Shown: positions 26,507-53,096, counted from the first letter of the stretch. The stretch: DNA of 64,000 nucleotides from Candidatus Poseidoniales archaeon (GCA_003602515.1 QQSB01000003.1:15388-79387); one strand, 5' to 3'. Made by a program: numbers and translations. The notes: generated by a model not told the origin, from the letters alone.

Positions 26507-29500
26507 ATGGCCGACCGGCGCTATATGTTCGCCTCACTGGCCTTATTGGTCTTAATCGCACCATTGGCATCCTCTTCCATCTCTGTTGAGCCATCGCGGC
26601 AAGGAGGATTCGATGCAAATGGAGACTGGATTCCAAGCGTAGAGTCAGACATCCACTGGAATTGGTGGACCCATTGGAGTCGAGACAAGGATTCCAACTC
26701 CATTGACGACAGATTGGAATGGTTGATTGAGCAACCAGAACAAACTCAGAGAGATTGGTGGAAGAGAGCCCCCGAGGGAAGCGCTCGTATTTTCGTCGAC
26801 TACGACCACCACCCCACAGATGCTGATATCTCAGCATTGGAGTCACTAGGGGTTGAAGTAACCTTCAGATTCGGATACTTGAACACGGTTTCTGGCACAT
26901 CGCCATTTGCACCCATCATCAACGAAGGAGGCATCAGGTCCCTCAATGGCGTGGTGATGATCGAGGACCTTGGACTTGCCGAGACAAACATGCACGAGGC
27001 AGCTCCCAATATGGGGGTCGACACAGTTTGGGAAGACTTCGGACTCGATGGTACTGGTTCTGTTATCGCTATCCTGGACACCGGAGTTCGTGGGGATCAC
27101 GAAGGCCTCAACGATATGGACGACGATCCGTTCACCTGTATCGATGACCCTCCCGAGCCAGATCCGCTGGACCCTGAACCGCAGCCCATTCCAGCGGACT
27201 GCGACCCCAAAATAATCGCATTCTTCGATGCGGTATTCACCGATGATGAGCAAGACCCATCCACCTCGTATGACTCCGGAACACATGGAACCCACGTTGC
27301 AGGTATAGCTGCCGGCTCAGGAGGGGGACAGACCGATCCTGTAACAGGCCTGAGATATGTTGGAGCCGCTCCCGGAGCGTATCTGATTAACCTTCTAGCC
27401 TGCTGTGATGGTGATATTGAGGATGTTATGCAAGGCGCCCAATGGGCAATCGACAATAAGGAAAAGTACGGGATAGACATTGTCACGTCTTCCTTGGGGG
27501 AACAGCAGTTCGAGCTCCATGTGGATAATGATGGGAGCTCAGCATGGAGCCGTCAAATGGATATGGTCGTGGAAGCTGGAATCATCACGACTCTTTCGGC
27601 AGGGAACGAATTCGGCGGAGCAACCCTTGCTGGTTGTAATACGATAGATAGTCCCGGCGATGCGCAACTGCCAGTCACAGTGGCTAGTCTGGACAAGGAT
27701 CTGGGACTTGCAATATACAGCAGTAGGGGATACACCTCAGATCTCAGAGTAAAACCGGACGTTGCAACAATCGGCTCCGATATCATGGCTCCCGACGCAG
27801 CAACCCAGGACGGGTACACCAGCAAGTCGGGAACGAGTATGGCAACCCCGCTGATGGCTGGAATCGCCGCACTGATGGTTCAAGCTAACCCAGATCTGAC
27901 TCCTACAGAGTTCAAGGAGATCATTTCGGCGCATTCGATAGAACGAGATATCCAATTACTGAACGATCCCGGTTTCAACGACTGCAGCCTCCTAGAAACT
28001 CGTCCCGACAACGAGTTCGGTTTCGGACAGGCCGACCCTACAGCATTCGTAGAGGCCGCAGGGAGCATTGATAGATCACTCAACATCTCAATGGAAGTCG
28101 CCACTCTGGAAGAGATTGGTAATGAGAGCTACGTCAAAGGAACTTCGAGTGGAGCAGCCACAGGTACCGGTCTGGTGGAAGTCAAGGTAGGTGGTGGAGA
28201 ATGGTCTGGAGCAGCCGACCTTTCCAAGGATGGAGACTGGTCATCATGGAGCATAAAACTAGACCCACATGAAAAGTCCGGTAACTCCACAATCTATGCC
28301 AGGCTGGTAGTTTCTGAGGACAGCATCTCTCCAGTAGATGCTAGGAGGGTGGTATTACTCGATGCCCAATCATCGGGCCCGTCCTCGTCACCAGGTGGAT
28401 TGACCGACCTAGGCCCGATCGTCTTCCTCGTACCCTTCCTAGTTGCAATAGTTCTGGTATTCTACACAGGTAGGAGAGAGGAATGGTCACTCAGCCCAGA
28501 TCCATCATCAAGTAATAAATCCGAAGCAGAAACCGAGCAATCTGGGTCAGAAGAAATTTTGTCGTTGTCCGAGCGACTTTCCAATAACTTCGCCGAGTTG
28601 GGCAAGGGTGGAGCCATAACCGAGAACTCGGTGAAGAGGGTACTCACTCTTTGCCTACTTTACTTCGCCCAAGGGCTCCCCTCCGGTTTCGCGAGTGTCA
28701 CCTTCGCAGCTTACCTCGTAGCCAATGGAGTTTCAGTGCCTGAGATTGCAATTCTGTTCGCCACGGTCTCGCTTCCATGGACATTCAAGTGGATTTGGGG
28801 GCCTCTAGTGGATTCAGTGTACATTGAGAAATACGGTCCTAGAAGGCAATGGATACTTTTCGCCCAAACTGGAATGGCTATCACCCTAGGGTCCCTACTT
28901 CTGGTTAGGGACTTGAATGGACAGATTGATCTGGTCGCCAGGATACTTTTCATCCACAACATCTTCTCATCCCTGCAGGACGTAGCAACGGATGCCCTAG
29001 CAGTAGAGGTGCTAGAGCCTGATGAGGTAGCTAGAGTCAACGGACTAATGTTCGCGGCAAAGAGAGTAGGAATTATCTTCGGAGGAGCAGTTCTTGGAGT
29101 TTTAATCACCAAGATAGGAATCTCTGGAGTAATAGCGGCCCAATTAGTAATGCTTGCATTCATCATTGTGGTGCCTCTTCTAATGGTTGAGAAGCCAGGC
29201 GTCCAACTATTCCCATGGTCAAGAAGTGCTGAACTGGAAGCAGACTCTTCTGAAGAGTTGACTGACTCTGGGGCATTAGTAGCAGAGATGGTGGAGGATT
29301 CAGAAATTACACCTTGGACTGAGGAGGAAGAATTCAGAGTAGCCAGAACTGTCGGATACAGTATTGCTAACAATAAGGCAACATTGACTTCCTTCTTTGC
29401 AATCTTGGGAGCCTGCATATGGCTATTCGGATTCGTGATAGACATTTTCACTGTGGACTGGAGCTTTGGAAAGTATGTCCGTGAAGGATTCCCTGCACTC

Positions 29501-30385
29501 GAAGGCAAAGAAGTGCTTTTCTTCGATCTAAAACCTTGGTCGGGAACGAATAGGATAAGCCTAGCACTAATCCTCCTATCGGTTTCTTCGATTGGATATG
29601 CCAGGATGAATGGCTCGAAACTAAAGGAATCATTACCAAACCCATTCCTGCTGATCCCAGAATCAACCAGGAATACAGTCGCAAGAACCTCCTTCTACCT
29701 GACTAAGGCTTTCTCTGTCAGATCCGCATTCTTACTGATAATTGCAGGACTCCTCGGAGAGTTATATTATTTCACAAGCCCAATTTATGTTGACATTTTC
29801 ATCAATGAGGCAGGATGGTCGCAAGAGAAGTATAACGGGATAGTCGGCGGGATCGCTTTGCTCGGATCCGTTTCTGGGCAGATAATCGGGGGTATCCTCG
29901 GAGACAAGTTTGGGATTCGCAGAGTCGCTATGGTCTCCTTCTTGGTACTGGCTCTGGCAAACGCTACTTTCGCCTTCCTGGAGCCGCAGTGGGGAAATAC
30001 ATGGGTAATGACGGTTTATCTGATAGGCCAGTACTTCATTGCTGGAATAGCCTTGATTTGCATCATCTCGTTGTGCATGAGGCTAACATGGAGTAAGGTG
30101 GGTGGAACCCAATTCACCGCATATATGTCTATTCTCAATACCTCAGTCGTTTTCGCTTACACCCTGACTGAGAGGATGATATCAGTATTCAACTATTCAA
30201 CAGCCATCTACATCGGTGCCGCCCTGACTCTTGTCACCTCCTTCTTCCTAGCCTTCATCGATGAGAATGAGACTGATCGGGTCCTAGAGGGAAGGTGGGA
30301 TGACGATGATGAATTTGATGATCTGGGAGAATCCCCTTTTTGGGAAAACGACGAAGGGGGCGGGAATCCTGTCGCAATTACATGA
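26507..30385 (+). CDS. Fusion protein: secreted subtilase (S8) - TM anchor - AmpG/PAT-family MFS permease
   Basis: Signal peptide. Asp/His/Ser motifs AILDTGV, HGTHVAG and SGTSMATPLMAG. TM helix GPIVFLVPFLVAIVLVFY. MFS half-motifs LYFAQGLPSGF, FKWIWGPLVDS...GPRRQW, SSLQDVATDA and GTQFTAYMSILN. The ORF is uninterrupted. Confidence 0.85.
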   Translation: MADRRYMFASLALLVLIAPLASSSISVEPSRQGGFDANGDWIPSVESDIHWNWWTHWSRDKDSNSIDDRLEWLIEQPEQTQRDWWKRAPEGSARIFVDYDHHPTDADISALESLGVEVTFRFGYLNTVSGTSPFAPIINEGGIRSLNGVVMIEDLGLAETNMHEAAPNMGVDTVWEDFGLDGTGSVIAILDTGVRGDHEGLNDMDDDPFTCIDDPPEPDPLDPEPQPIPADCDPKIIAFFDAVFTDDEQDPSTSYDSGTHGTHVAGIAAGSGGGQTDPVTGLRYVGAAPGAYLINLLACCDGDIEDVMQGAQWAIDNKEKYGIDIVTSSLGEQQFELHVDNDGSSAWSRQMDMVVEAGIITTLSAGNEFGGATLAGCNTIDSPGDAQLPVTVASLDKDLGLAIYSSRGYTSDLRVKPDVATIGSDIMAPDAATQDGYTSKSGTSMATPLMAGIAALMVQANPDLTPTEFKEIISAHSIERDIQLLNDPGFNDCSLLETRPDNEFGFGQADPTAFVEAAGSIDRSLNISMEVATLEEIGNESYVKGTSSGAATGTGLVEVKVGGGEWSGAADLSKDGDWSSWSIKLDPHEKSGNSTIYARLVVSEDSISPVDARRVVLLDAQSSGPSSSPGGLTDLGPIVFLVPFLVAIVLVFYTGRREEWSLSPDPSSSNKSEAETEQSGSEEILSLSERLSNNFAELGKGGAITENSVKRVLTLCLLYFAQGLPSGFASVTFAAYLVANGVSVPEIAILFATVSLPWTFKWIWGPLVDSVYIEKYGPRRQWILFAQTGMAITLGSLLLVRDLNGQIDLVARILFIHNIFSSLQDVATDALAVEVLEPDEVARVNGLMFAAKRVGIIFGGAVLGVLITKIGISGVIAAQLVMLAFIIVVPLLMVEKPGVQLFPWSRSAELEADSSEELTDSGALVAEMVEDSEITPWTEEEEFRVARTVGYSIANNKATLTSFFAILGACIWLFGFVIDIFTVDWSFGKYVREGFPALEGKEVLFFDLKPWSGTNRISLALILLSVSSIGYARMNGSKLKESLPNPFLLIPESTRNTVARTSFYLTKAFSVRSAFLLIIAGLLGELYYFTSPIYVDIFINEAGWSQEKYNGIVGGIALLGSVSGQIIGGILGDKFGIRRVAMVSFLVLALANATFAFLEPQWGNTWVMTVYLIGQYFIAGIALICIISLCMRLTWSKVGGTQFTAYMSILNTSVVFAYTLTERMISVFNYSTAIYIGAALTLVTSFFLAFIDENETDRVLEGRWDDDDEFDDLGESPFWENDEGGGNPVAIT

Positions 30386-30392
30386 CATAATT

Positions 30393-30635
30393 ATGGGCGC
30401 CGAGAATGACTTTCTTGTCTTCACACAGACGATCTGCCCATACTGCACCCGGGCATTCAGGACCCTCGATTCGAAGGGACTAACCTATTCCGAAATCAAC
30501 CTCGATAACTTCGATGGCCTTCGAAAGGAGGTTGTAAAGGAAACTGGCCACAGGACAGTACCCGTGGTATTCGACATGCGAGGGGATGCCCCCGTCTTCG
30601 TAGGTGGCTCAGACCACCTAATGGAATATCTCTAG
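30393..30635 (+). CDS. Glutaredoxin/NrdH-like small redoxin
   Basis: 81 aa. CPYC active site in VFTQTICPYCTRA, plus TVPVVF and GG motifs. ATG lies 8 nt after the upstream stop. Confidence 0.8.
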   Translation: MGAENDFLVFTQTICPYCTRAFRTLDSKGLTYSEINLDNFDGLRKEVVKETGHRTVPVVFDMRGDAPVFVGGSDHLMEYL

Positions 30636-31597
30636 AGGGACCAAGACTGGGTTATTCCACCGGCCACTCTAACTCTCAAGAAGGTCGTTCCACCTGTGAA
30701 GGTGGCTGTTAGGGTGTATTCTCCAGATGGATAGGGAATTGTCCCGAGAGTCCCCATCTCGCTCGCTCCCGGACCCCATATCCTCTCTAGAGCCGATACC
30801 GACATGTGATCCCTGAGGGTAAGTGAGATGGATGAACCAGAGCCACAATCTGCATCGATGAAGTAGATCATCTCGTCCCACTCGCCATCACTCGGGTGGT
30901 CGCTAACGAGAAACGTGTCGCGAATCTCGATGTCGTTCCCAGGATCCTCCCATGTGTCGCTGAACAGGTCTCCTCCTCTGACGAAGTAGACATCCCCCGA
31001 GTGCCCAGTACCGCTATCGGAGAGCATCATCCTGAGTTTTGTCCCTCCCAACTCGTCCTTCCATGTGAAGGAGTAGAAGAAACCGACTTCGCTATCGAAC
31101 ACGTAATCCAGTCTAGAACCATCCGACGAGCTAGCAATGATCACTGCGGTACTCCCCGAGATGTCGGAGACAAAGGCATCCCATTCCATTGAGAACAGAG
31201 TGAAAGACCAGGAGTTCCCCTCCTCGAGGGGGAAACTCAGAACCGATTGCGCGACCCCATTCTCGAAGGCACCCAAATCGGAGTGAGTCATCCTCCCCAG
31301 GAATGGGTTGTGGTTGAGAACAGCATGCCGCCTCGCCTCGGTAAGGCTGGAGATCGCTAACATGTACGCAGTACCATCCTCCTCGCTTGTGCTCGCCACC
31401 ACCAATCTCGCCGTGTCATCGCTGTAATCCGGAGTTGAGAAAGTGTATAGCCACCAATCTCCAGTCTCCCAGATAGGCACCTCAAAATCACTCGTCGCAG
31501 AGTCATCCCCGCTCGACTGCCCCCCCGAGCATCCTGCAAGTGATGATGATAGCAGAACCACTAGGATTGCACATGCGCGGCCCTTGCCCATACCCAC
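30632..31597 (-). CDS. Secreted lipoprotein, unknown function
   Basis: Lipobox LSSSLAGCSGG and a beta-rich body. I recognised no family motif. Confidence 0.6.
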   Translation of the reverse strand: MGMGKGRACAILVVLLSSSLAGCSGGQSSGDDSATSDFEVPIWETGDWWLYTFSTPDYSDDTARLVVASTSEEDGTAYMLAISSLTEARRHAVLNHNPFLGRMTHSDLGAFENGVAQSVLSFPLEEGNSWSFTLFSMEWDAFVSDISGSTAVIIASSSDGSRLDYVFDSEVGFFYSFTWKDELGGTKLRMMLSDSGTGHSGDVYFVRGGDLFSDTWEDPGNDIEIRDTFLVSDHPSDGEWDEMIYFIDADCGSGSSISLTLRDHMSVSALERIWGPGASEMGTLGTIPYPSGEYTLTATFTGGTTFLRVRVAGGITQSWSL

Positions 31598-49628: not shown

Positions 49629-52600
49629 ATGTACGGGCCCTCCAGAGCCATCATGATGATTGCAGCCTTGGCATTGGCACCGTTAGCCTGCTCGCTGACC
49701 GTGGCAGACCTTTCAAACTCCGATTCATACACGGCAGAATCATCGGTGCAAGCCAGAAATACGGGTTCCGTCGATGTACCTAACTGGAGAGTCAACGACA
49801 ACTGGATGTACGACGGGTACCTGGATGTTGTTGATTTCGTAGCAGACTCTGGCGTCTCCACGAATGCCGAGACCCTCGAGGGATCGCTCGATAGGACGGT
49901 GTCAGACATATATCTGTACGATATCGATGGTAATGAGACCCTCGTCTACGAAGTAGAGTCGATAGGCGCTTACGAGTCAGACGGCGTCATTGAGATAGAC
50001 GGAACCAATGGCTGCCTATACCTGGATATGCAGACTACTGAAATAATTCGCGTCTCGGACTTGGCTACTTACTCTCAGGATGTCACGATTGACGTATACT
50101 TCGACCCTTCCTTCTGGGGTAACTGCGTCGATTGGCTTAGGCAGGATATCGGTGAGCTGAGTGTGGACAACACGTTCCGACCCCCTCTGGAGAACTACGA
50201 CTTCCCTCTCTCTGTTGGGGAAACTTGGGGAATGGACTACAGCCAGGAAACCGAATACAGTGGCTCCAGCAATTACGTAGACATCCCCGATGACACTAGT
50301 GACACAAACTCCACCAGTTGGGCTGTCGTTAGCCAGGGTGGCTCCGGAGTCGCATACCCTGGTTGCTACCAGTCATTTAACGTGACATCATACGACTCGG
50401 ACGGTGATGAGGTCGGATTCAACTGGTACTGCCCGGCAGTTCGAGGCGAGGTGAAGAGCTCTATCGAACAGGCATTCGGATTCATCGCAGTCCATGAGTT
50501 GGTCAGTTACCAACCTGTTACTAGAGGGAAGGAGATTTCGATAGACATCGAATACCCACTTTCGCCTACTGGAATCGAGATATCCGCATGGCTTAATATC
50601 ACGGAACAGGGGCAAGCAGTCGCAAACCAAGATCTTCAGTTCCGCTATGAATCCGAGGATGAGGTACAGAACGTAACTACGGATGAAAATGGCTCCTACC
50701 ATTTGACCTTCAATTCTGGAGACAACCCCGATGATACCCATGGCTCAGGAGAACTCGGCAGCCACGGTTTGATCGCTTGGACATACCTTGGCGGCAATGC
50801 CCTGGGAACAAAGTCCCTGGTAATAGACTCAGAAGTTCATGAGATAGACTTGGTCGCCAGATCTTCTGCAGTAACTGTTCAGAGGCTGCGTCCATCAAGT
50901 GGAAACGAGGTTACACTCGACTCGTCCATTGGATTTACGGCCATTTCTGGAGATATCCTAACCTTCTCAGTACCGGTCTCGAACCGTGGTTTGATCCAGT
51001 CGCCATACTCCACGATCGTCATCAGCGCCCCAGACGGATCAGAAGTTTCAGGCACGGTTCCCCCACTGGGGAGTCTGCAGGAATCCCGGGTCCTTGTCAA
51101 CTGGACGGTCCCCGAATCCCAGCCTTTCGGAAACGTCTACCTGTTCTTCGAGGTTGACCCCTTGGAGGAAATAACTCAGGAAGGCAACAGATCAAACAAC
51201 CAAGGATCGTTCGTTCTCTATGTAGGGGGCCTCCCAGTCTCGGATCTCTCCATGCTAAATGAGACTCTGACTAATGAGGCGGTGACATTCGATGCAAGCG
51301 CGTCTTACGACTCAGACGGGGGGAGCGTAGACTGCGAATTCAATATCGAAAAGGTCGATGGGTCTTATGCAGAGTTATCAGATGATGACTGCATTGTCGA
51401 ATGGTCTTGGGTAGACGATGGTGTCTTCGCAGTTTCAGTCCTAATCACGGACGAGGAGAGCGACCAGTCATCTATCGAGTCTACGATTTCGGTCATCAAT
51501 CGCCCTCCTGTAATCACTCTCGGATCTAATTCTGATGAGGTAGTGGTCACTACGCCAATCACATTCTCCGTGACAGACATTAGTGACAATGACACGAGGA
51601 ATCCTTCCGCACCTGCCGAGTTACTGTGGGGAGCAGTTTGCTCAGAGGGACAGGTCGGCCAGTCATGCACTGTTATCCCAATGGTCGAGGGATTGCTGAC
51701 CATCGAAGTCATGGCAACCGATGATGATGGCGCAACCACCGTCGCGGATTACTCCGTCCAAGTAACCAACATTGCCCCCTCAAACCCAGTCGCAGAACTC
51801 TACCGAGGGGAGGAGAGACTCTTCCCTGATAGCCGTGGAGTCTTCACAGTCTACGAAGGCGATGAAATTACATTCTGGGGCCAGGCAGATGATTCGTCAA
51901 ACGACATCGAAAGCCTCGTCCACGTATGGAAGCCAGATGCAGAGTATCAACCCGATATTAACTCAACCAGTACCGGCTTCAGGAGCACCCTCTCTGGTGT
52001 CTCGTACAACACATCAGGAATGCACCTGGCCACTCTACAGGTCTTCGATGATGACGGAGAGGGGACCGAGGTCCTGATAGTGCCAATACAGGTGGTCAAT
52101 GTAATCCCGGAGATTACTCCAATGACAACCATCCTTGGCGATCTAGAGGAGGACCAAGAGTTCACCATCAGCCCAATAGTTTCTGATACCGGAAATGACT
52201 CAGATTCTCTAGTACACTGCTTCGATCTAGACCCCTCAACCGATCATGACTCGGATGGTGTTCCCGAGAATGACTGCGACGTTCAGTCGGCCACCCTGGT
52301 TCACTCATGGCCGGACTCTTATTCAGCACCCGATTCGATACTTTTCCATGTCACCGACGATGACGGGGCATCAGAATCGATGGAGTTCACTTTTGTCGTC
52401 GTCAATTCGCCTCCAGAGGCATTCGCATCAGCAAGTGTCGCTAATCCAACAGAGGGAGACTCGGTCATACTATCGGCCAACGGTACAATCGACTCACAGG
52501 CAGACATGGACTCCTTGGTTTTCCAGTGGGACATCGACATCACCTTCGACTCGGATGGGGACGGAAACCCTGGAAACGATATCGACTATACGGGCAGATG

Positions 52601-53096
52601 GATAGAGTTCTCGTATGACTCAGGAGGGCCGAAAAAGGCACAGCTTACCGTGCTAGACGATAGCTCCAGTCACTCAGTAATCATGGACTTGGAGGTAGCA
52701 GAAAAACCCATCACGATTTCAGGCACCATCCAATCAAACATCGGTCCGATAATCATGGTGCTTGCAGCAATCTCATTAGTCGCTTGGACCTTCCTAAGAC
52801 CAAATCCTAGAGGTGAGAAAGAGATGTCCAAAATCCCCCATGAGATCGACATTGACGCTGCATTTGACGAGCCCGCGGAACCATTGGTGGACACTAGTCC
52901 GTTCGAATCGCCCCCCCGGGCCGACCAACACCTAGAGGACCCAACGATTCTGGAGGGGCTGGAAGATGTCCTCGAAGAGCTCACTGGGAGCAAACAAGAG
53001 GTGGATCCAGCTTCAGATTTGCCCTCGGCACCCAATCTCTACGAGAAAAAGGCCGATCTTGATCTCGCAGATATAGAAGCACTCTTTGAGGAGTAG
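49629..53096 (+). CDS. Large secreted PKD-repeat surface protein with a C-terminal TM anchor and acidic cytoplasmic tail
   Basis: Signal peptide. Multiple PKD-like repeats (FDASASYDSDGGSV, VMATDDDGATT, VFDDDGEGTE, HVTDDDGASE). A CARDB-like segment (VPVSNRGL). TM helix IGPIIMVLAAISLVAWTFL. Confidence 0.75.
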   Translation: MYGPSRAIMMIAALALAPLACSLTVADLSNSDSYTAESSVQARNTGSVDVPNWRVNDNWMYDGYLDVVDFVADSGVSTNAETLEGSLDRTVSDIYLYDIDGNETLVYEVESIGAYESDGVIEIDGTNGCLYLDMQTTEIIRVSDLATYSQDVTIDVYFDPSFWGNCVDWLRQDIGELSVDNTFRPPLENYDFPLSVGETWGMDYSQETEYSGSSNYVDIPDDTSDTNSTSWAVVSQGGSGVAYPGCYQSFNVTSYDSDGDEVGFNWYCPAVRGEVKSSIEQAFGFIAVHELVSYQPVTRGKEISIDIEYPLSPTGIEISAWLNITEQGQAVANQDLQFRYESEDEVQNVTTDENGSYHLTFNSGDNPDDTHGSGELGSHGLIAWTYLGGNALGTKSLVIDSEVHEIDLVARSSAVTVQRLRPSSGNEVTLDSSIGFTAISGDILTFSVPVSNRGLIQSPYSTIVISAPDGSEVSGTVPPLGSLQESRVLVNWTVPESQPFGNVYLFFEVDPLEEITQEGNRSNNQGSFVLYVGGLPVSDLSMLNETLTNEAVTFDASASYDSDGGSVDCEFNIEKVDGSYAELSDDDCIVEWSWVDDGVFAVSVLITDEESDQSSIESTISVINRPPVITLGSNSDEVVVTTPITFSVTDISDNDTRNPSAPAELLWGAVCSEGQVGQSCTVIPMVEGLLTIEVMATDDDGATTVADYSVQVTNIAPSNPVAELYRGEERLFPDSRGVFTVYEGDEITFWGQADDSSNDIESLVHVWKPDAEYQPDINSTSTGFRSTLSGVSYNTSGMHLATLQVFDDDGEGTEVLIVPIQVVNVIPEITPMTTILGDLEEDQEFTISPIVSDTGNDSDSLVHCFDLDPSTDHDSDGVPENDCDVQSATLVHSWPDSYSAPDSILFHVTDDDGASESMEFTFVVVNSPPEAFASASVANPTEGDSVILSANGTIDSQADMDSLVFQWDIDITFDSDGDGNPGNDIDYTGRWIEFSYDSGGPKKAQLTVLDDSSSHSVIMDLEVAEKPITISGTIQSNIGPIIMVLAAISLVAWTFLRPNPRGEKEMSKIPHEIDIDAAFDEPAEPLVDTSPFESPPRADQHLEDPTILEGLEDVLEELTGSKQEVDPASDLPSAPNLYEKKADLDLADIEALFEE

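Follow-up and report, generated by a model that had tools for sequence, protein, structure and literature searches.

An extracellular subtilase fused to an AmpG-like MFS permease in Poseidoniales: a candidate cut-and-import protein

The 64,000-nucleotide stretch of DNA analysed here (the window) comes from a Marine Group II (MGII, Poseidoniales) archaeon, a member of a group abundant in the ocean, and contains a gene in which a family S8 subtilase and an MFS transporter are joined in one polypeptide, hereafter S8-MFS. Our results show that this fusion is real, ancient and kept across the whole class. A literature search found no published description of an S8-subtilase/MFS fusion, in agreement with the first-pass annotation, whose author was not aware of any characterised protease-permease fusion. 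As to function, cut-and-import, that is, surface proteolysis feeding the attached permease, is the best reading, which we put at just short of an even chance; what we infer is which way the transporter works, which substrate it takes and that the two halves are coupled, and the coupling is plausible.

One reading frame from signal peptide to transporter

Translation of 26507..30385 (plus strand) gives 1292 unbroken residues and a stop, bearing out the single uninterrupted ORF described earlier, and a frame of this length in DNA of about 50% GC cannot be of chance origin. The protein runs in order through a signal peptide, pro-region, S8 subtilase, beta-jelly-roll, one TM anchor and acidic linker into a 14-helix MFS domain (Table 1). 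The HMM searches suggested in the first-pass annotation matched Peptidase_S8, far above its cutoff of 21.8 bits, MFS_1 (PF07690; residues 715-1214, 105.3 bits, cutoff 33.4), Acatn (48.4 bits, cutoff 23.7) and the AmpG-family model TIGR00901; Acatn and BT1 both match the first MFS helices.

Table 1. Features of the S8-MFS gene and its right-hand neighbours (window positions; residues are those of the S8-MFS protein)
Feature	Position (nt)	Strand	Basis
Signal peptide, residues 1-24, RR in n-region conserved	26507..26578	+	hydrophobic peak, residues 5-30
N-terminal segment, conserved and Trp-rich, with probable pro-region; residues 25-181	26579..27049	+	family alignment
S8 catalytic domain, residues 182-507	27050..28027	+	PF00082, 145.7 bits, full profile covered
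S8 catalytic residues D191; H260; N367; S444	27077-27079; 27284-27286; 27605-27607; 27836-27838	+	
Recombinant cassette (beta domain, anchor, linker, MFS), 2.4 kb	28000..30400	+	region-wise protein and sliding DNA identity
Beta-jelly-roll domain, residues 508-625	28028..28381	+	all-beta in AF2 model, pLDDT 73-85
Stalk and single TM anchor, residues 626-657 (TM ~636-657)	28382..28477	+	Kyte-Doolittle peak 2.66
Acidic Ser/Glu-rich cytoplasmic linker, residues 658-712	28478..28642	+	family alignment
MFS N-lobe, TM1-6, residues 713-895	28643..29191	+	residue map to AmpG 8zgz_A
Central loop with extra two-helix hairpin, residues 896-1060	29192..29686	+	AF2 model
MFS C-lobe, TM7-12, residues 1061-1255	29687..30271	+	pLDDT 80-92
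Acidic tail at the C-terminus (residues 1256-1292) plus stop codon	30272..30385	+	13 of 37 residues Asp/Glu
CPYC glutaredoxin gene, 7 nt after the S8-MFS stop	30393..30635	+	Pfam Glutaredoxin, E = 1.6e-14
321-aa lipobox protein, convergent neighbour, conserved, ...LLSSSLAGCSGG N-terminus	30632..31597	-	translation

The consensus of the putative signal peptide, of Sec or Tat type, is MxxRRxMFASLALLVLIAPLASSSI and is kept across the family alignment. The segment that follows (residues 25-181) gave no match in Pfam, holds many invariant residues (W53 W54 W57 S58 R59 D60 ... H101 H102 P103) and is a probable pro-region; its position before the catalytic domain makes it a putative I9-like propeptide. 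All three triad motifs claimed for the protease are present, AILDTGV (D191), HGTHVAG (H260) and SGTSMATPLMAG (S444), and the triad residues, in Asp-His-Ser order, sit with the oxyanion Asn, N367, in canonical motifs; all four residues are unchanged in an alignment of 22 family members and in one of 61. Judged by sequence, the domain is a family S8 member with an intact catalytic tetrad; among solved structures, the subtilisin-like protease of Thermococcus kodakarensis comes closest (3afg, E = 5e-36). The conserved head cysteines include a vicinal Cys-Cys pair at residues 299-300. A beta-rich domain does follow the protease as first described, but it spans about 120 aa (508-625) instead of ~170; a weak CBM_6 match (E = 0.0012) lies under the Pfam cutoff.

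The order pro-region, S8, beta domain is shared with Tk-SP (3afg) and with further subtilases of archaea that have a beta-jelly-roll at the C-terminus, and P0138 and P0141, anchored subtilases that stand alone, have the Trp-rich N-terminal motif too. In these proteins the chain stops after the beta domain or at a single TM anchor, whereas that of S8-MFS runs on into the transporter; a stand-alone TM-anchored subtilase of the P0138/P0141 type is likely to be the ancestral state. One stand-alone relative, on a bacterial contig, is encoded beside a proline racemase, a DAO-type oxidase and a beta-lactamase-fold amidohydrolase.

The single TM helix placed at nt ~28412-28465 in the first-pass annotation (GPIVFLVPFLVAIVLVFY, residues 636-653, nt 28412-28465) is borne out by a hydrophobic peak stronger than any other outside the MFS and by a confident AF2 helix (model residues 546-565). 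Basic residues follow it directly (TGRRE), as they do in every head class, so that an N-out/C-in orientation fits. The proposed topology, with a signal peptide, the ectodomain outside, one TM helix and the MFS N-terminus inside, is supported and self-consistent. The linker is the most variable part of the protein, with 9-59% identity across the family and a length of only about 20 aa in some clades.

A conserved fusion with exchangeable parts

More than 120 protein clusters contain S8-MFS at full length, among them all of the top 120, and 174 species-representative genomes encode it. Among 80 listed loci it is found in both MGII families, single-cell genomes included, and Marine Group III has it as well; in all of these groups it occupies one and the same syntenic position. 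Orthologues are consistently fused, and the architecture is the same down to 48% identity in hundreds of independent assemblies (ENA, JGI, NCBI, Tara, Logan).

Purifying selection acts with equal strength on the two halves (dN/dS 0.01-0.05). The values are 0.01-0.03 for S8, 0.02-0.09 for the beta-jelly-roll, 0.01-0.04 for the N-lobe and 0.01-0.05 for the C-lobe, compared with up to 0.25 for anchor and linker and 0.15-0.27 for linker and central loop. Since the MFS lobes are as constrained as the protease, the MFS is not a degenerate anchor.

An assembly join, a frameshift or read-through could in principle have united two separate genes, and a 672-aa S8-beta-TM protein without MFS (P0122) does exist, either as a real split variant or as a truncated gene call. 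The fusion is intact in these clusters and species genomes, however, and the identical architecture in independent assemblies, single-cell genomes among them, the reading frame kept through many linker indels and the purifying selection spanning the S8/MFS junction effectively refute an artefact, whose probability we regard as negligible.

In Poseidoniales the same MFS family is also fused to other extracellular heads: an M28 peptidase with visible metal ligands and a cupredoxin with an intact type-1 copper site (both sequences read by eye), and a jelly-roll, domain X, with conserved cysteines. The stalk and anchor of S8-MFS are homologous to those of the domain-X fusions. In a sibling MFS clade, clade B, one unchanged pocket is found with M28, cupredoxin and jelly-roll heads, the modules being 58-67% identical. 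At the orthologous locus, a non-catalytic-looking jelly-roll or an M28 head stands in place of S8 in some lineages, and M28-MFS genes adjoin the same right-hand neighbours as S8-MFS. The window gene itself is a recombinant: compared with L011 and L041, identity is 84-93% outside the cassette and 64-72%, or unalignable, inside it, while L001, L002 and L008 show the reverse pattern, being closer inside than outside. The ancestry of the cassette therefore differs from that of the 5' part of the gene and of both flanks. Head and MFS recombine independently, and cassette exchange is recurrent.

An AmpG-like transporter

By sequence and by fold, the MFS half is nearest to AmpG and SLC33A1, of the PAT family (TC 2.A.1.25). 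These are its only PDB sequence matches below 1e-8, and the top five Foldseek hits are four AmpG structures and SLC33A1, with AmpG best (E = 8e-13). TIGR00901 is the best NCBIfam MFS model at 121.8 bits, below its curated cutoff of 350; two further AmpG models, NF008238 (49.5 versus 756) and NF008867 (63.5 versus 656), also score below theirs. Together with Acatn above its cutoff, these matches uphold the earlier placement nearest AmpG/PAT carriers and dispel the concern that the C-terminal half might fail such models.

In the AF2 model (pLDDT 70-92) the domain forms two six-helix bundles, with an invariant motif A (D769...G777-x-R779-R780) between TM2 and TM3, plus a hairpin; the 12-14 TM helices first counted thus resolve into 12 canonical helices and two in the central loop, at residues ~960-982 and 1014-1034 (model residues 868-890 and 922-942). 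This loop varies in sequence and length, and clade B fusions do not have the hairpin. Key N-lobe residues are K761, motif A, Q824-D825, D829, E834 and K852-R853, of which the intramembrane charges K761, D825, D829 and R853 are invariant, as is motif A. The C-lobe carries E1085, D1096, a second motif-A-like GGxLGDxFGxRR and GGTQFTAYMS.

AmpG (8zgz, 9j9z, 9c3f), at an identity of only ~15-16%, shares with S8-MFS the 14 helices, motif A (D70, R80, R81) and N-lobe residues K62, D125, D129, D134 and R153, all of whose equivalents are invariant in the family. In AmpG, K62, D125, Y152, R153 and R365 have been assigned to substrate binding, and D238 and E326 to a proton relay (PMC12214514). K62, D125 and R153 have conserved equivalents in K761, D825 and R853, whereas Y152 aligns to K852, and a weak C-lobe alignment (7.6 bits) places D238 opposite Y1087, E326 opposite Q1175 and R365 opposite V1214. 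The proton-relay residues D238 and E326 are thus not matched in this weak alignment, the Q1175 position being Q, R or K across the family; invariant E1085, two residues before Y1087, might substitute. The two extra helices of AmpG are at its C-terminus (TM13-14; PMC12214514), while those of S8-MFS lie between TM6 and TM7. S8-MFS also differs in its 650-aa extracellular N-terminal extension and in an archaeal host without murein. The one-for-one motif correspondence with AmpG reported earlier holds for the N-lobe and the TQF motif but not for the C-lobe functional residues. Given these residues and the score under the curated cutoff, the transporter is best classed, on sequence grounds, as AmpG-like and not as AmpG.

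SLC33A1/AT-1 (9m0s, 9mun) is an equal-ranking N-lobe sequence match (E = 1e-10 to 1e-11) that shares the K, D and QD..D core, but it is a eukaryotic (human) ER protein without an R153 equivalent and without an ectodomain fusion. It is reported to carry acetyl-CoA and oxidized glutathione, the latter toward the cytoplasm (PMC12889552, preprint; PDB 9mun), and AmpG is reported to move muropeptides in the same direction (PMC12214514). AmpG, as an importer of large peptide-bearing substrates, resembles the role proposed here; neither of the two characterised PAT-family relatives found here is reported as a carrier of plain peptides.

Cut-and-import and its alternatives

On the cut-and-import reading, the signal peptide would take the N-terminal half across the membrane, where the pro-region would fold an active subtilisin-type endopeptidase, followed by the jelly-roll; the single helix would return the chain to the cytoplasm, and the flexible acidic linker would lead into the 14-helix PAT-type MFS. 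At the cell surface the tethered protease would cut protein, whether dissolved or bound to particles, and the permease, within nanometres and probably proton-coupled, would take up the peptide products before they are lost by diffusion, while the glutaredoxin, encoded in the same direction, may reduce imported products that contain disulfides. If true, this would amount to 'selfish' extracellular digestion by one polypeptide, and the class-wide fusion suggests, without proving it, that MGII cells digest protein outside and import it on the spot.

The logic has precedents. In the lactococcal system the surface-anchored S8 proteinase PrtP makes peptides that Opp and DtpT import, although these are separate, bacterial proteins with ABC and POT carriers instead of a PAT carrier. 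Bacteriocin exporters of the PCAT type, ABC proteins to which a C39 peptidase domain is fused, and substrate-binding domains fused to ABC importers show that a peptidase or capture domain can be covalently attached to a transporter; the C39 domain, however, is cytoplasmic and serves export, the transporter class differs from MFS, and we know of none of these that is an MFS protein fused to an extracellular endopeptidase. In Acinetobacter baumannii, a cell-wall hydrolase is reported to be coupled non-covalently to an AmpG permease as AmpG1-Slt (PMC13507758). There too a hydrolase outside the membrane is physically tied to an AmpG-family permease and cleavage is linked to import, but binding occurs through a periplasmic AmpG1 domain and the enzyme is a lytic transglycosylase acting in cell-wall recycling. 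MGII archaea are themselves described as degrading proteins and peptides and as transcribing peptidase genes, a subtilase gene among them, at high levels (PMC6336850, PMC9723583).

In favour of coupling, a second, unrelated peptidase (M28) occurs on the same MFS family, both fold relatives are reported to carry large peptide-bearing molecules inward, and the invariance of triad, oxyanion Asn, motif A and intramembrane charges makes both modules functional by sequence criteria. Against it stand the sub-cutoff TIGR00901 score, the AmpG C-lobe residues without conserved equivalents, the non-protease heads on the unchanged clade B pocket and the replacement of S8 at the orthologous locus. That heads are swapped while the pocket stays constant speaks against strict coupling and, taken together with head replacement and independent recombination, suggests that the transporter's job does not depend on the head it carries. 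The MFS might then have a fixed function unrelated to the head, heads being attached for anchoring, co-expression or co-localisation, and S8 would be an ordinary surface protease whose products enter by other carriers such as Opp or OPT. The recurrent cassette exchange fits this, as do the stand-alone ectodomain relatives that already have their own TM anchor and the oligopeptide transporter reported from most MGII genomes (Tully 2019). Yet where a single TM helix already anchors the head, a 14-helix anchor adds nothing; two of the heads are different peptidases, and a class-old fusion with such low dN/dS on both parts suggests a gain from physical linkage. We consider an unrelated transporter function unlikely, if well worth entertaining.

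It is improbable, in our estimation, that the MFS moves a small molecule outward, or exchanges one, to serve Cys-rich or metal-dependent ectodomains, a thiol/disulfide compound being one candidate, in a function shared with neighbouring redox genes. SLC33A1, which binds acetyl-CoA and oxidized glutathione (PMC12889552), is a close structural relative; the heads contain several conserved cysteines, the Cys-Cys pair and those of domain X included, and one head is a copper redox protein. The CPYC redoxin described downstream of S8-MFS is indeed there, with its ATG at 30393 and a gap of 7 nt, not 8 (54 bits to NCBIfam glutaredoxin 3, below the cutoff of 90), and a CPYC or CGYC ORF holds this position in 64 of the 70 S8-MFS loci; KatG and AhpC follow one X-MFS gene. 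However, the whole region is syntenic across the order, which makes adjacency alone weak evidence, the glutaredoxin gene that abuts the M28-MFS gene lies on the opposite strand, the analysis yielded no sign of glutathione synthesis in these archaea, and both AmpG and the reported glutathione flux of SLC33A1 run toward the cytoplasm.

A true AmpG, importing bacterial muropeptides scavenged from seawater while the protease trims peptidoglycan-associated peptides or proteins, would account for AmpG coming first among sequence models and fold matches alike, for the invariant equivalents of the GlcNAc-anhMurNAc-binding K62, D125 and R153, the last of which SLC33A1 does not have, and for the gene neighbourhood of the stand-alone relative noted above. 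We think it very improbable: the score falls far under the AmpG cutoff, the equivalents of Y152, D238, E326 and R365 are not conserved, the extra helices are placed differently, and the K62, D125 and D129 equivalents are common to the whole PAT family and so not specific to AmpG. Moreover, this archaeal lineage lacks murein and so has none to recycle, and we know of no S8 endopeptidase that acts on peptidoglycan stems.

The convergent lipobox protein found no match in Pfam and NCBIfam searches, and its gene adjoins S8-MFS, M28-MFS and X-MFS genes alike. Genes for riboflavin, redox and housekeeping functions also lie nearby in the window.

Architecture and distribution of the S8-MFS fusion

The comparisons made here establish a real, ancient and strongly selected fusion between what looks like an active ectoprotease and what looks like a functional secondary transporter. 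Every motif quoted for it in the first-pass annotation was found in the ORF, and the domain order described there holds overall, except that the beta domain spans about 120 aa rather than about 170. A hydropathy scan resolves the core of the signal peptide, a single strong TM peak standing apart, and the MFS helices, the first of which are also matched by the Pfam models Acatn and BT1. Two alignments, with 22 and 61 members, show no variation at D191, H260, N367 and S444; conservation is highest in the ectodomain and lowest in the anchor, the linker and the central MFS loop. Among solved structures, the protease comes closest to the subtilisin-like protease of Thermococcus kodakarensis (3afg). 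An AF2 model of residues 93-1292 is confident for the jelly-roll, the anchor helix and the MFS (pLDDT 70-92), the latter with 6 + 6 helices and a two-helix hairpin in the central loop; the S8 part, with too shallow an alignment, was left unfolded (pLDDT below 50), and the placement of protease relative to transporter is not readable from the model.

Features of the fusion gene and of its surroundings, in window positions and protein residues
Feature	Position	Strand	Residues	Remark
Fusion ORF	26507-30385	+		unbroken, 1292 codons
Signal peptide	26507-26578	+		twin arginine in n-region (MxxRRxMF...), kept across the family
Peptidase_S8			182-507	Pfam, 145.7 bits
TM anchor			636-657	isolated hydropathy peak
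MFS_1			715-1214	Pfam
Exchanged cassette	about 28,000-30,400			beta domain, anchor, linker, MFS
Glutaredoxin	30393-30635			CPYC
Lipobox-like protein	30632-31597	-		321 aa, LAGC near N-terminus
CARDB + PKD protein	49629-53096	+		1155-aa ORF

Export may be by Sec or by Tat, although Tat export of a head ahead of a 15-helix membrane domain would be unusual.

A search of 5.8 billion clustered proteins gave 2378 matches, the best 120 of which are all full-length S8+MFS proteins (1223-1317 aa, 61-100% identity) from ENA, JGI, NCBI, Tara and Logan assemblies. Some of these bear the JGI label 'subtilisin family serine protease/MFS family permease'. The orthologues, which the first-pass annotation proposed to check for split genes, are consistently fused. 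When one genome of each GTDB species was scanned, a relative was found in 174 genomes, and the 80 loci shown from these belong to Poseidoniales (Poseidoniaceae, Thalassarchaeaceae and single-cell genomes) with one exception. This locus (L061, NZWI01000049.1) comes from a bin named 'Candidatus Neomarinimicrobiota bacterium' and holds the fusion within a full Poseidoniales riboflavin and GHMP neighbourhood, the bacterial label being probably a binning error. The recurrence of full-length fusions across independent assemblies and species genomes rules out an assembly artefact.

HMMER, run exhaustively over 1.84 billion representatives, reduced the family to one 50% cluster and one more distant full-length fusion (P0121, 48% identity), which belongs to a cluster with the name Marine Group III / Poseidoniia. 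Outside Poseidoniia, the long S8 relatives that rank within the top 150 representatives include no S8-MFS fusion and carry Ig, PKD or CARDB domains without an MFS. These searches make the fusion a conserved trait of the class Poseidoniia. As to its origin, two stand-alone relatives (P0138 and P0141) have the Trp-rich N-terminal motif, S8 and beta domains in common with the fusion, and their chain stops after a single TM anchor and a short basic tail, which suggests that a TM-anchored subtilase was joined to a permease gene. An MGII-type S8-beta-anchor protein of 672 aa (P0122) stops just past the TM anchor, without MFS; a frameshift in the assembly could explain this, as could a rare variant that is split or truncated in nature.

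Identity of the transporter module and selection on it

The first-pass annotation had assigned the C-terminal half to the AmpG/PAT carriers. Among NCBIfam models, TIGR00901 (AmpG family) indeed ranks first, followed by the RhtX/FptX siderophore carriers, but its 121.8 bits lie below the curated cutoff of 350. Foldseek places AmpG first (9j9z at 8e-13, 8zbb, 8zgz, 9c3f) and SLC33A1 next, and sequence searches of the PDB returned only these two proteins at E below 1e-8. In a profile alignment with numbering checked against the study from which the AmpG residue roles were taken (PMC12214514), conserved equivalents are present for AmpG K62 (K761), D70 (D769), R80/R81 (R779/R780), D125 (D825), D129 (D829), D134 (E834) and R153 (R853), but neither for Y152 (K852) nor, in the weakly aligned C-lobe, for D238 (Y1087), E326 (Q1175) and R365 (V1214). 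The one-for-one motif correspondence with AmpG claimed earlier is good in the N-lobe and only there. The equivalents of K62, D125 and D129 are common to the whole PAT family, SLC33A1 included, whereas that of R153 is not. In addition, AmpG has its two extra helices at the C-terminus, whereas the hairpin of the fusion is central, and the nearest stand-alone MFS relatives (about 35% identity) obtain the same 120-144 bits on TIGR00901. Judged from this residue map, the hairpin position and the scores of the relatives, the module is a PAT-family member nearest to AmpG and outside AmpG itself; a canonical AmpG was rejected on the family cutoffs and the weakly aligned C-lobe residues.

Values of dN/dS (Nei-Gojobori, between related loci) are 0.01-0.03 in the S8 catalytic domain and 0.01-0.05 in the MFS N-lobe and C-lobe, and reach 0.25 in anchor plus linker and 0.27 in the central loop. 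Constraint on the transporter half is as tight as on the protease. These values and the invariant intramembrane charges rule out that the MFS is a degenerate, mere anchor.

A stand-alone MFS relative on a bacterial contig (P0133, locus L081) lies beside a proline racemase and a DAO-type oxidase, and adjoins a 984-aa amidohydrolase/beta-lactamase-fold protein; this single example hints at uptake of D-amino-acid-containing peptides.

Exchangeable heads and recombination at a syntenic locus

The closest relatives of the MFS module themselves carry fused extracellular domains, namely a Peptidase_M28 (P0128), a cupredoxin (P0132) or an unannotated 'domain X' (P0123, P0125 and P0130), and more distant ones bear a C-terminal 3-keto-disaccharide-hydrolase-like domain or FG-GAP repeats. 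All the N-terminal fusions follow the order signal peptide, head, TM anchor, basic residues, acidic linker and MFS, and a second database search (1785 matches) found such fusions to be abundant in Poseidoniales. Paralogous head-MFS genes were found neither in the window nor in the 80 S8-MFS loci. Domain X has a jelly-roll fold like CBM16 and the C-terminal domain of CocE/PepX-type enzymes. BLAST similarity between its fusions and the S8 fusion is confined to stalk and anchor, and its derivation from the fusion's own beta domain as a diverged copy was rejected (hhalign probability 0.8%).

Across M28, cupredoxin and X heads, the MFS modules are 62-66% identical. Clade A, to which the window's fusion belongs, has K852-R853, E1085, D1096 and the central hairpin, and bears S8 or sometimes X heads; clade B lacks R853 and the hairpin, has S1085 and E1197, and bears M28, cupredoxin or X heads. 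The predicted pocket residues track the MFS clade rather than the head.

The order riboflavin genes, GHMP kinase, fusion, glutaredoxin, 321-aa lipobox protein and H+-PPase is kept in about 70 of the 80 loci. Genes with an X head on a clade A module (P0123 and P0288, loci L091-L094) occupy exactly the same slot, from E1 dehydrogenase to IleRS, and an M28/clade B gene (L083-L085) adjoins the same glutaredoxin, lipobox protein and H+-PPase, the last being 89% identical to that of the window. At the locus orthologous to the window's, other Poseidoniales lineages thus have an X or M28 head where the window has S8.

The window's fusion gene is itself a mosaic: one lineage (L011/L041, 84-93% DNA identity) matches it over residues 1-507 and in both flanks, and another (L001/L002/L008) over the cassette listed in the table, with boundaries at the S8/beta-domain junction and the gene end. 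Between L045 and L050, dS is 1.8 in S8 versus 0.24-0.38 in the MFS, and between L073 and L059 the discordance is reversed, which suggests that modules have been exchanged repeatedly between lineages. It is possible, with the balance somewhat against it, that Poseidoniia hold a modular 'head-anchor-permease' family in which a PAT-type MFS is combined with exchangeable extracellular heads (subtilase, M28 aminopeptidase, cupredoxin, jelly-roll), heads and cassettes change partners by recombination at one fixed locus, and S8 and M28 heads pass their products to their own permease.

The Poseidoniales cupredoxin-MFS proteins (P0325 at L086/L087, and P0132) have a type-1 copper site that appears intact by eye (H...C-x-P-H-x4-M), and their genes neighbour those for acyl-CoA dehydrogenase, 3-hydroxyacyl-CoA dehydrogenase and an OPT transporter. 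At L088/L089, a Lactamase_B-fold gene precedes a clade B X-MFS gene, as it does the M28-MFS gene, and catalase-peroxidase and AhpC genes follow it, placing oxidative-stress genes again beside a head-MFS gene.

Possible coupling of proteolysis to uptake

The mechanism put forward in the first-pass annotation, in which proteolysis at the surface by the S8 head would be followed by immediate uptake of the products through the protein's own permease, is the most economical one, and we give it a little under an even chance. It is favoured by PAT relatives that move large peptide-bearing molecules toward the cytoplasm, by the occurrence of a second peptidase family (M28) on the same transporter family, and by the reported non-covalent coupling of a hydrolase to AmpG (PMC13507758); the proposed benefit would also suit life in dilute seawater. 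Strict coupling is disfavoured, however, by swappable heads on an unchanged pocket, by heads that are not proteases and by the free recombination of modules. The same observations speak for a constant transporter that would work independently of its accessory heads, a reading we regard as rather unlikely. A role of the MFS in export or redox supply seems improbable, and true muropeptide import still less probable.

No description of the fusion was found in the literature, the main MGII genomics papers included; the transcription supplements of Damashek 2021 list subtilases, among which the fusion is not distinguishable. At present, these genes are labelled 'hypothetical protein', 'MFS transporter' or 'AmpG signal transducer'. 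The protein is a new architecture made from known parts and a member of a previously unremarked modular family. It would be the first fusion of an extracellular endopeptidase with an MFS carrier that we are aware of, and would add a new branch to the AmpG/SLC33A1 family. MGII, so far uncultured, rank among the most abundant surface-ocean heterotrophs and are thought to use proteins and lipids (PMC6461757, PMC6336850, PMC9723583). In this regard, the protease-transporter gene offers a concrete, testable mechanism for the capture of digestion products in very dilute water; coupled cutting and import, if true, would amount to a single-polypeptide 'selfish' use of dissolved protein, undescribed before, in very abundant archaea. 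Head swapping at one locus also provides a natural experiment on how transporters gain accessory domains, and should the halves work independently, the annotation correction would still be useful.

Function read from neighbours carries little weight, since the region holds housekeeping genes and keeps its synteny throughout the order. The CPYC gene reported downstream of the fusion is present, starting 7 nt rather than 8 nt past the stop codon, and by eye carries TVP and GG-x-D, as glutathione-binding glutaredoxins typically do. In 64 of 70 loci, a CPYC or CGYC glutaredoxin lies at most a few bases 3' of the fusion and on the same strand; the M28-MFS loci have it directly beside the fusion too, on the opposite strand. 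The host archaeon is not known to make glutathione. The glutaredoxin link and the report that SLC33A1 binds oxidized glutathione (PMC12889552) constitute a lead, not evidence. The lipobox-like protein, beside S8-, M28- and X-MFS genes across the order, gave no family match, and tRNA and Rfam scans of the window found nothing. The CARDB + PKD ORF is probably another surface protein, and the rest of the window is housekeeping, with a xanthine-dehydrogenase-like molybdoenzyme, 2-oxoacid dehydrogenase E1, IleRS, CysRS, a CCG/4Fe-4S protein and an SSF symporter.
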